Assembly: GCF_024700885.2 (NCBI RefSeq)
Contig: NZ_CP117016.1
Strand: one strand, 5' to 3'
Length of the DNA stretch: 64,000 nt
DNA from: Escherichia coli
GTDB lineage: Bacteria; Pseudomonadota; Gammaproteobacteria; Enterobacterales; Enterobacteriaceae
Made by a program: the position numbers and the translations under genes. Below, piece by piece: positions 30,541 through 31,338 of this stretch (position 1 is its first letter; every line of letters begins with the position of its first letter). Below the pieces are notes generated by a model, which was given only the letters and a program-made list of their open reading frames with translations, was not told where the DNA came from and searched no databases.

Positions 30541-31338
30541 ATGCTAAAGGAAATAAATGACAATAAACTAACAACAAACTTTATAAGAATAAAAAGAATA
30601 ACTCTAAATGCTTTTACAATAATGCACACTGATAATTGTTTCATCACACTCAAAAATGAAAGAGATTGTATTACCTGTACTAAAGACAATTTTCTCTTTC
30701 TAGAAAAAAATATGACATTTTCATGTGAGATCGTCAAAGTTAACGAAAAACTACCGCCATTTAGTATTGTGAGTTTCGATAGAAAATCGCAAATACTACT
30801 GAAAGATATTTTGAAAGAAATATATCCACTCTTTATGGGGGGCTGTGATATTCAGAGAGAAAAAATAATTACGGAAAACTCCATTGCACCTCAGTACCAG
30901 CTATTTGAGCTTATTACAAGAACAAATGACTTAAAACTAAAAGTTATTAAATCGGCCTATCTTATAGCGACAATGAAAAATCATGCAAAGATAATAAGCT
31001 CTTTATATGCGTCATGTGGAATAACCTTTACCGATAAGGTAAAAAATGAGTTAAGAAAAGATCTATCAAAGAATTGGAAGATAAGTATGATTGCAGATAA
31101 ATTCAATATATCTGAAGTATCAGTAAGAAAGCGCCTGAGTTCAGAAAAAACATCTTTCAGTCAGTTATTACTTCAGGCCAGAATGGATAGAGCCCTTCAA
31201 TTAATCCTGGATAATGAATTACCGCTCTCCTCCGTTTCAGAAAGTATAGGAATATCTAGCATGCCATATTTCATTAGAGTATTCAAATATTTTTTTGGAA
31301 TAACACCAAAACAATTCTCAATTTATTTCAGAGAATAA
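30541..31338 (+). CDS. AraC-family virulence regulator of the AggR/Rns/CfaD class
   Basis: 265-aa, very AT-rich, C-terminal AraC HTH pair (…MIADKFNISEVSVRKRL… and …SVSESIGISSMPYFIRVFKYFFGITPKQF…); same length class as AggR/Rns. Confidence 0.6.
   Translation: MLKEINDNKLTTNFIRIKRITLNAFTIMHTDNCFITLKNERDCITCTKDNFLFLEKNMTFSCEIVKVNEKLPPFSIVSFDRKSQILLKDILKEIYPLFMGGCDIQREKIITENSIAPQYQLFELITRTNDLKLKVIKSAYLIATMKNHAKIISSLYASCGITFTDKVKNELRKDLSKNWKISMIADKFNISEVSVRKRLSSEKTSFSQLLLQARMDRALQLILDNELPLSSVSESIGISSMPYFIRVFKYFFGITPKQFSIYFRE

Follow-up and report, generated by a model that had tools for sequence, protein, structure and literature searches.

Can a transcriptional activator govern genes from which it is cut off by kilobases of mobile-element debris? 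The question is raised by a 64,000-nucleotide stretch of Escherichia coli DNA (contig NZ_CP117016.1, assembly GCF_024700885.2; hereafter, the window), in which an open reading frame (ORF) for a 265-amino-acid (aa) AraC-type regulator lies downstream of genes for a chaperone-usher fimbria, a dispersin (Aap)-like coat protein and the Aat proteins of dispersin acylation and export. Remnants of insertion sequences (ISs) and of a group II intron lie between them. The initial annotation had reasoned that regulators of this class are normally adjacent to their targets, and that the rearrangements may have rewired the circuit. Enteroaggregative E. coli (EAEC) is in practice defined at the molecular level by the AggR regulon, aatA and aggR serve as diagnostic probes, and activators of the Rns/AggR family act in trans.

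We conclude that the ORF probably encodes a trans-acting activator of the Rns/AggR lineage that would act on the fimbrial, aap-like and aatPABCD promoters through AggR-type sites, the mosaic having been inherited with no recent rewiring. Gene content, homologies, site positions and alignments, conservation of the helix-turn-helix (HTH) motifs and the age of the mosaic were computed; from these we infer binding, activation and the inducing signal.

A chromosomal module with predicted AggR-type promoters

The regulator is part of a chromosomal module consisting of an aggregative adherence fimbria (AAF)-like gene set, dispersin, Aat proteins and regulator, which lies in a pathogenicity-island-like region with iro gene remnants (hereafter, the island; Table 1). 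Over 16.9 kb the window matches the chromosome of E. coli MLI114, a Malian stool isolate, at 100% identity. The fimbrial genes have the AAF order (chaperone, usher, AfaD-like subunit, pilin) together with homology to AggD and AggC. AAF pilins have an unusually high isoelectric point (pI), above 8 (PMC7500659), and the predicted mature forms of four pilin alleles exceed this value (pI 9.2–9.6, with the signal-peptide cleavage site assumed). The dispersin/CexE-Aat part comprises a small secreted protein, whose Sec signal peptide is followed by an N-terminal glycine, and aatPABCD including AatD; acylation of the dispersin N-terminal glycine has been described (PMC7943197). Family matches of the Aat proteins include a LolD/MacB-type ATPase, an adaptor and an Lnt-like acyltransferase (AatD against Lnt, E = 8e-9).

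Binding sites were defined as WWWWWWWTATC with at most two mismatches in the tract and a -10 hexamer 21–23 bp downstream, following AggR-dependent promoters (PMC6392122), at which one correctly placed site is enough for AggR dependence (Yasir et al., PMC6392122). Exactly one composite match was detected within 200 bp upstream of each of the chaperone, aap-like and aatP genes, in all three cases on the coding strand and with a spacing of 22 bp (TATC at 14833–14836, 19804–19807 and 22118–22121, respectively). The fimbrial site GCTTTTTTATC ends 86 bp 5' of the chaperone ATG and aligns with the validated AggR site of aggD in strain 17-2, ATTTTTTTAGC, with its -10 hexamer TATAAT (PMC6392122). The TATC of the aap-like site GTTTTATTATC aligns with that of the AggR site characterised for aap of strain 042, CTATTTTTTATC, and the aatP site AATAATTTATC aligns with the characterised aatP site of the same strain, AGTTATATATC. 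The aap-like site was invariant in five of five island copies despite a 30-bp indel upstream, and a 1-bp indel moves its spacing from 22 to 23 bp. The IS66 remnant upstream of aatP ends 30–80 bp before the site. Dinucleotide shuffling gave P values of 0.023 (chaperone), 0.084 (aap-like) and 0.085 (aatP), or ~1.6e-4 jointly, and the island-wide hit rate gave P ~2e-3 for finding a composite at three of the four promoters tested. The search for Rns/AggR-type sites that the initial annotation had put forward thus returned one predicted site at each of the three promoters, aligned with validated AggR sites. These results support in silico the fimbrial, aap-like and aat genes as a plausible regulon of the regulator.

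Under the proposed mechanism, the regulator would follow the AggR model and bind a single A/T-tract-TATC site lying 22 bp ahead of the -10 hexamer at each of three separate promoters, those of the chaperone-usher-afaD-pilin operon, the aap-like gene and aatPABCD. The basic-pilin fimbria, the dispersin coat protein and dispersin export would in this way be switched on together. The IS and intron debris would divide the module into separate transcription units while ending short of each core promoter, and the distance between regulator and targets would be irrelevant because the activator diffuses.

The regulator is a distant member of the Rns/AggR lineage

The ORF noted by the initial annotation is a genuine AraC-type gene, as its coordinates, the RefSeq coding sequence and the Pfam domains agree. 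RefSeq lists it as WP_021523955.1, "AraC family transcriptional regulator" (from the identical MLI114 sequence), and GGAG stands 7 nt 5' of the ATG. HTH_18 (E = 3e-13) and HTH_AraC (E = 4e-10) match residues 184–259, both above the gathering score, giving the C-terminal double HTH of ~100 aa that marks the AraC/XylS family. A phmmer search of the Protein Data Bank sequences returned CsvR (E = 2e-48, regulator residues 13–264) and Rns (E = 1e-47, residues 14–264); by tblastn the AggR match spans residues 6–264, and CfaD aligns too.

Identity to AggR, Rns, CfaD and CsvR is 36–38%, and those four are 65–100% identical among themselves. In a neighbour-joining tree with bootstrap (40 members, 265 columns; RegA of C. 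rodentium not in the tree), the regulator fell within a 16-member clade with AggR, Rns, CfaD and CsvR (87% bootstrap), with VirF outside. Within that clade it belongs, with uncharacterised E. coli and E. marmotae regulators, to a weakly resolved group that is sister to the core. By sequence, then, the regulator is of the Rns/AggR lineage in the broad sense and does not belong to the close-knit core, in which identity is at least 65% and the activators are interchangeable. The class assigned to it by the initial annotation holds for the wider lineage (full-length E of 1e-48, the 87% clade) and fails for the core group, from whose clade the phylogeny excludes it.

Most of the divergence falls in the N-terminal domain, where identity is 26% to AggR and 27% to the Rns-type proteins of enterotoxigenic E. 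coli (ETEC). The DNA-binding domain is 53% identical to that of AggR and 52–53% to those of Rns, CfaD and CsvR; VirF is 51% identical to AggR in this domain. Both recognition helices are kept, and the motifs SE..RKRL..E and YFI..F....G.TPK.F are invariant in seven of seven aligned regulators. In Rns, His20 and Arg75 contact the carboxylate of decanoic acid (PMC8329261). Both residues are present in AggR, CfaD and CsvR, and they align with Asn23 and Ser78 of the regulator, the Arg75 column being the less certain with N-terminal identity of just 26%. This replacement hints at a different or absent fatty-acid control of the regulator.

No close relative of the regulator was found in a homologue search or in a HMMER search over 1.84 billion representatives; the closest are 44–46% identical. 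In the latter search 15 clusters reached E ≤ 1e-30, labelled "AraC family" and all from E. coli or E. marmotae. The surroundings of the E. marmotae plasmid relative consist of just IS elements, an intron and plasmid maintenance genes.

Separation by insertion sequences is usual and ancestral

The layout given in the initial annotation proved accurate. The regulator starts 3.4 kb from the aat genes (aatD ends at 27135; gap, 3,405 bp) and more than 10 kb from the fimbrial operon (the pilin gene ends at 19391; gap, 11.1 kb). The intron remnant, IS481, IS66 remnant and deleted IS3 are all present in the intervening DNA, along with an 84-bp IS66 fragment that had gone unlisted. Mosaic 1 is composed of a partial IS481 transposase (20459–21307, - strand) and a partial IS66 tnpC (21333 to ~22079, + strand). 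In mosaic 2, a group II intron maturase fragment (27195–27647, - strand; Pfam GIIM, E = 1e-24) is followed by an intact IS481-family element (27663–28683, transposase 27704–28675), a transposase fragment of ~295 bp between the IS481 and the IS3, the IS3 itself (28978–30193, - strand) with an internal deletion and a frameshift, and the extra IS66 tnpC fragment (30194–30278), which abuts the IS3 end.

Comparison with known systems revealed that regulators of this kind are usually set apart from their targets by IS elements. On the prototype pAA plasmid pHUSEC2011-2, aggR is separated from aap by 5.8 kb, from aggA by 10.4 kb and from aatP by 12.5 kb, and IS5, IS4 and IS66 elements intervene; on the ETEC plasmid pTW10690 the Rns-like regulator is ~58 kb from the aat genes. 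The IS481-fragment-IS3 (- strand) block of the window (27663–30193) is colinear with, and 96–99.5% identical to, a block between bfpL and perA on pMAR2 (NC_011603.1; 7001–9568 of the extracted locus), where perA is annotated as the BFP system transcriptional regulator. The premise of adjacency in the initial annotation is wrong because the pAA, pTW10690 and pMAR2 layouts are separated too, and by analogy pMAR2 offers a working precedent for activation across the same mosaic. Similar IS481-IS3 blocks also occur on AIDA-I and other plasmids, and the one composite stands 5' of two different AraC-family virulence activators.

The closest functional parallel in content is AggR/pAA, which has the same module content, the same fimbrial order (aggDCBA), a basic pilin and a basic dispersin, A/T-tract-TATC sites 21–23 bp upstream of the -10 hexamer, and IS elements between regulator and targets. 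The two differ in the sequences of the regulator (37% identical to AggR) and pilin (23% identical to AggA), in location (the island module is chromosomal in 53 of 53 genomes, whereas aggR is plasmid-borne in 60 of 60) and in that the window has no aar gene or other gene of the AraC negative regulator (ANR) family. With Rns, CfaD and CsvR (6XIU, 9GFP) the regulator shares the size of 265 aa, a two-domain full-length alignment (E = 1e-47 to 2e-48) and the regulation in trans of fimbriae and a CexE/dispersin-Aat system, which on the island side is predicted; the ETEC genes, in contrast to the island, have an ANR gene immediately upstream. PerA of the EAF plasmid pMAR2 of enteropathogenic E. coli is likewise an AraC-family activator whose gene is separated from the structural operon by the same IS block, but it is 25% identical to the regulator, its target is a type IV pilus and not a chaperone-usher fimbria, and no Aat or dispersin is involved. 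The nearest relative, an uncharacterised regulator of the pig-farm plasmid pRHB27-C20_3 (44% identical; grouped with the regulator in the tree at a weak 40%), is also IS-flanked and beside a fimbrial operon, but that operon is type-1-like and unrelated, an ANR gene adjoins it, and there are no aat or aap genes nearby.

The full module was found in the chromosomes of 39 complete E. coli genomes (~0.7–1% of such genomes) and on no plasmid, and the regulator was present in 39 of 39 full-length copies. In every copy examined the neighbours were the same, with iro pseudogenes on one side and the IS5 remnant, a serine-protease autotransporter (SPATE) fragment, IS600 and a type I restriction-modification system on the other. 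Even in ECONIH1, the copy that differs most (98.7%), the IS mosaic is the same and the regulator protein is identical to that of the window. NCTC86, Escherich's isolate of 1885, carries the island at the same chromosomal site (~99% identical), and the mosaic is present there with further IS insertions. Because ECONIH1 and NCTC86 both have it, the mosaic is ancestral to the island's spread, old and inherited.

Parts of the island have been noticed before. The NCTC86 genome paper reported an Aat/dispersin homologue with a complete substrate gene and an adjoining IS-disrupted chaperone-usher locus (Dunne et al. 2017, PMC5382810), and the dispersin homologue was later placed in the dispersin clade (Rivas et al. 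2020, PMC7344145). The regulator is undiscussed in both papers, in which "AraC" has no occurrences. No paper was found on the RefSeq accessions of the island proteins, and a literature search aimed at a sixth type of AAF, or at AggR homologues encoded on a chromosome, returned nothing relevant. The structural genes are thus already in the literature, and the regulator adds a new and divergent example to an already known type of system. With 47% identity to Aap, the "aap-like" genes of PMC7251025 probably represent a different system.

Pilin divergence in otherwise conserved islands

At least four pilin alleles with 69–88% aa identity were detected in islands that are otherwise >99% identical, the divergence being limited to positions 18900–19350, the mature pilin region. 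The compared copies were those of the window (18876–19391), SW4848 (8377–8889), NCTC86 (8213–8725) and a third island copy (6877–7395), the last three in locus coordinates. The ratio of nonsynonymous to synonymous substitution rates (dN/dS, NG86 method) was 1.3–2.5 in six of six pilin pairs, and ~0.3 for chaperone and usher. The pilin pattern indicates diversifying selection or allele exchange, and it is what an antigen that is expressed and exposed would be expected to show. Despite island divergence of 1.3%, the window and ECONIH1 both retain intact copies of the regulator and of all ten structural genes. Between copies, the regulator shows one synonymous and zero to one nonsynonymous differences, too few to demonstrate selection.

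A mismatch between regulator and transport proteins

The Aat, dispersin, chaperone and usher proteins are 51–70% identical to those of EAEC, whereas the regulator is 37% identical to AggR. AatP and AatA of the island are 58% and 51% identical to those of pAA and 63% and 52% to those of pTW10690, and identity to the ETEC-type Aat proteins of p503829 is 26–35%. The transport proteins place the island inside the EAEC group, with the p503829 Aat proteins as a distant outgroup. The regulators of pAA, pTW10690 and p503829, together with CfaD, are mutually 53–77% identical, and the island regulator is 37% identical to each. These comparisons suggest a regulator swap with conserved cis logic. In the simplest reading, a single lineage, most parsimoniously that of the island, exchanged its regulator for another and retained promoters of AggR-type architecture. 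The polarity rests on a comparison of four systems; a scan of contigs across species by AatA alignment yielded one locus, on a Collinsella-labelled contig. The proposed direction of replacement is provisional, since such regulators move freely among plasmids. The 20-kb contig from that scan (JAIJJM010000008.1, "MAG: Collinsella sp.") encodes an AatA 100% identical to that of the window and is almost certainly a mis-binned E. coli contig.

A further possibility, which we advance tentatively, is that the island is a natural regulator swap in which AggR-type promoters are driven by a non-orthologous Rns-family activator without an ANR partner or fatty-acid contacts. The module might then answer a different signal, or none, in commensal and extraintestinal lineages, with its pilin diversifying.

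Weighing the alternatives

Several observations weigh against control of the module by this regulator. It stands outside both the core AggR/Rns/CfaD/CsvR clade (100% bootstrap) and an extended clade (90%), and at such a distance (36–38% overall, 26% in the N-terminal domain) a DNA specificity shared with the core group is something we infer. The A/T-tract-TATC motif is degenerate and common in AT-rich DNA, and composites occur in the island at 0.39 per kb per strand. The remaining points concern the surroundings of the regulator and the decay of some island copies. Just 262 bp of native DNA are left 5' of the regulator, bounded by the IS66 and IS3 fragments, and no canonical composite of site and -10 hexamer (21–23 bp) that could serve autoregulation occurs upstream of it. 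Five TATC-type sites lie in the 282 bp upstream, two of them with a perfect A/T tract, which is not a significant enrichment (P 0.06–0.09). No ANR gene was detected in the 64-kb window using tblastn and hidden Markov model searches from four ANRs against six-frame ORFs (best E = 0.16), unlike the situation at the cfaD-type, csvR-type and pRHB27 regulators (ANR genes 0.15–1.8 kb away) and at aggR (aar ~8 kb away on pAA). DNA of the pRHB27-type ANR, the one type for which the search extended to complete genomes, was found on seven plasmids and in none of the island-bearing strains. As for decay, NCTC86 has a 1-bp frameshift in the regulator, an indel in the chaperone gene and an usher gene split by IS3 (the window copies are intact); at least 11 genomes (FDAARGOS_1276 type) have lost aatPABCD and the regulator through an IS3-mediated deletion; and SW4848 has lost aat and carries an IS3 inside aap. 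These copies amount to natural mutants, and the module looks dispensable and under loss in some lineages.

The truncated surroundings are what would be expected had the IS rearrangements uncoupled or rewired the circuit, as the initial annotation proposed, for example by truncating the control region of the regulator or removing partner genes. The IS5 remnant 20 bp 3' of the regulator stop would fit as well, and the absent ANR (Aar-like) negative-feedback gene is one possible form of rewiring, which would be a genuine change of the circuit if the feedback arm was lost. We nevertheless regard rewiring as unlikely. None of the three target promoters is disrupted, and each aligns with a validated AggR promoter; the functional systems of pAA, pTW10690 and pMAR2 show the same sort of separation; the mosaic is stable over 39 chromosomes; and the aggR and rns control regions in the literature fit in ~250 bp. 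With an activator of a trans-acting type, surviving core promoters and a mosaic ancestral to all island copies, the proposed rewiring by rearrangement is not borne out.

Slightly less likely still is that the module descends from an integrated pAA-like plasmid segment and is now a decaying remnant, silent in most hosts, whose regulator ORF persists for want of decay time. The independent losses described above agree with such a history, as do the heavy IS load, the truncated EspI-like SPATE fragment near the regulator, the iro pseudogenes and the paucity of regulator differences on which selection could be demonstrated. A relic is harder to reconcile with ten structural genes and a regulator that are all intact in the window and in the divergent ECONIH1, with the chaperone and usher dN/dS of ~0.3, and with the pilin dN/dS above 1, which is limited to the exposed mature protein and argues for expression under host or phage pressure. 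We consider it very improbable that the regulator came in as a passenger cassette of some other fimbrial system, with another specificity and regulon, the island promoters being vestigial or served by another activator. The mismatch between the Aat proteins, which place the island in the EAEC/TW10690 group (51–63%), and the regulator, at 37% to the regulators of all those systems, could be read in this way; so could the 44% relative beside an unrelated fimbrial operon and the 1.1-kb low-GC gene cassette tightly bracketed by IS remnants. Against it, the regulator retains its HTH recognition helices to the same degree as VirF does, and all 39 full-length copies of the module have inherited the regulator along with it. 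No named strain among the complete genomes has both aggR and the island, which leaves no obvious alternative activator; as 0.6 co-occurrences would be expected by chance, this absence carries little weight.

Gene map and neighbouring features

The coordinates of the module, the mosaics and the predicted promoters are given in Table 1. Between the pilin stop and the aap promoter, a G+C-rich inverted repeat (AGGAAAGGAC...GTCCTTTCCT) was observed at 19490–19560. This repeat probably terminates the fimbrial operon, which would leave aap as its own transcription unit.

Table 1 Module genes, predicted promoters and mobile-element remnants in the window.
Feature	Position	Strand	Evidence and remarks
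Predicted activator-dependent promoter, fimbrial operon	14826–14864	+	Site GCTTTTTTATC 14826–14836, 22-bp spacer, -10 TATTAT 14859–14864
Fimbrial chaperone, AggD-like	14923–15690	+	67% identical to AggD; SafB/SefB chaperone family matches
Fimbrial usher, AggC-like, intact	15709–18315	+	70% identical to AggC; NCBIfam usher, E = 5e-263
AfaD/AggB-like minor subunit (invasin)	18331–18765	+	53% identical to AggB; Pfam AfaD, E = 8e-23
Major pilin	18876–19391	+	23% identical to AggA; mature form highly basic, pI 9.2; hypervariable between island copies
Predicted activator-dependent promoter, dispersin-like gene	19797–19835	+	Site GTTTTATTATC, 22-bp spacer, -10 TAGTAT
Dispersin (Aap)-like coat protein, 115 aa	19917–20264	+	64% identical to Aap; signal peptide then GGGGW (...FA|GGGGW)
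IS mosaic 1, between aap-like gene and aatP	20459–22079		RefSeq annotation of MLI114
Predicted activator-dependent promoter, aatPABCD	22111–22149	+	Site AATAATTTATC, 22-bp spacer, -10 TATTCT
aatP, aatA, aatB, aatC, aatD (dispersin acylation/export)	22203–27135	+	AatP 58%, AatA 51% identical to pAA
IS mosaic 2, between aatD and regulator	27195–30278		RefSeq, Pfam, sequence matches
Native upstream DNA of regulator	30279–30540	+	262 bp, 26% G+C; sigma-70-like hexamers and five TATC-type sites, none canonically spaced; 99.4–99.7% conserved among island copies
Regulator coding sequence, 265-aa AraC-type	30541–31338	+	ATG 30541, stop 31338; divergent N-terminal domain, conserved double-HTH DNA-binding domain
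IS5-family transposase remnant	31359–32237	-	Begins 20 bp past regulator stop; RefSeq and plasmid matches

Just past the IS5 remnant lies the truncated SPATE fragment (32213–33121, + strand), which is EspI-like according to annotation in other genomes and has a weak PIC/HAP1 beta-solenoid match. Its presence is consistent with a pAA-like virulence plasmid having been the source of the entire segment. Further downstream, a darT-darG toxin-antitoxin pair (~37950–39670, - strand) is nested between the R and S genes of the type I restriction-modification operon and is adjoined by an M48 metallopeptidase gene. The sole tRNA gene of the window, tRNA-Ser(GGA) (58468–58555, - strand), may mark the integration site of a large island that comprises the iro remnants, the module, the restriction-modification/DarTG genes and Ag43.

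Implications

A complete AAF-like fimbria, dispersin and Aat module thus resides on the chromosome with a distant relative in the place of aggR. Separation of the regulator from its targets by IS-littered DNA is the normal state of these systems and provides no evidence of rewiring. Should the regulator indeed act on the island's AggR-type promoters, the wider Rns family would have kept a common DNA recognition at identities as low as 37%, and an adhesin of the aggregative type could be produced by strains that lack aggR.

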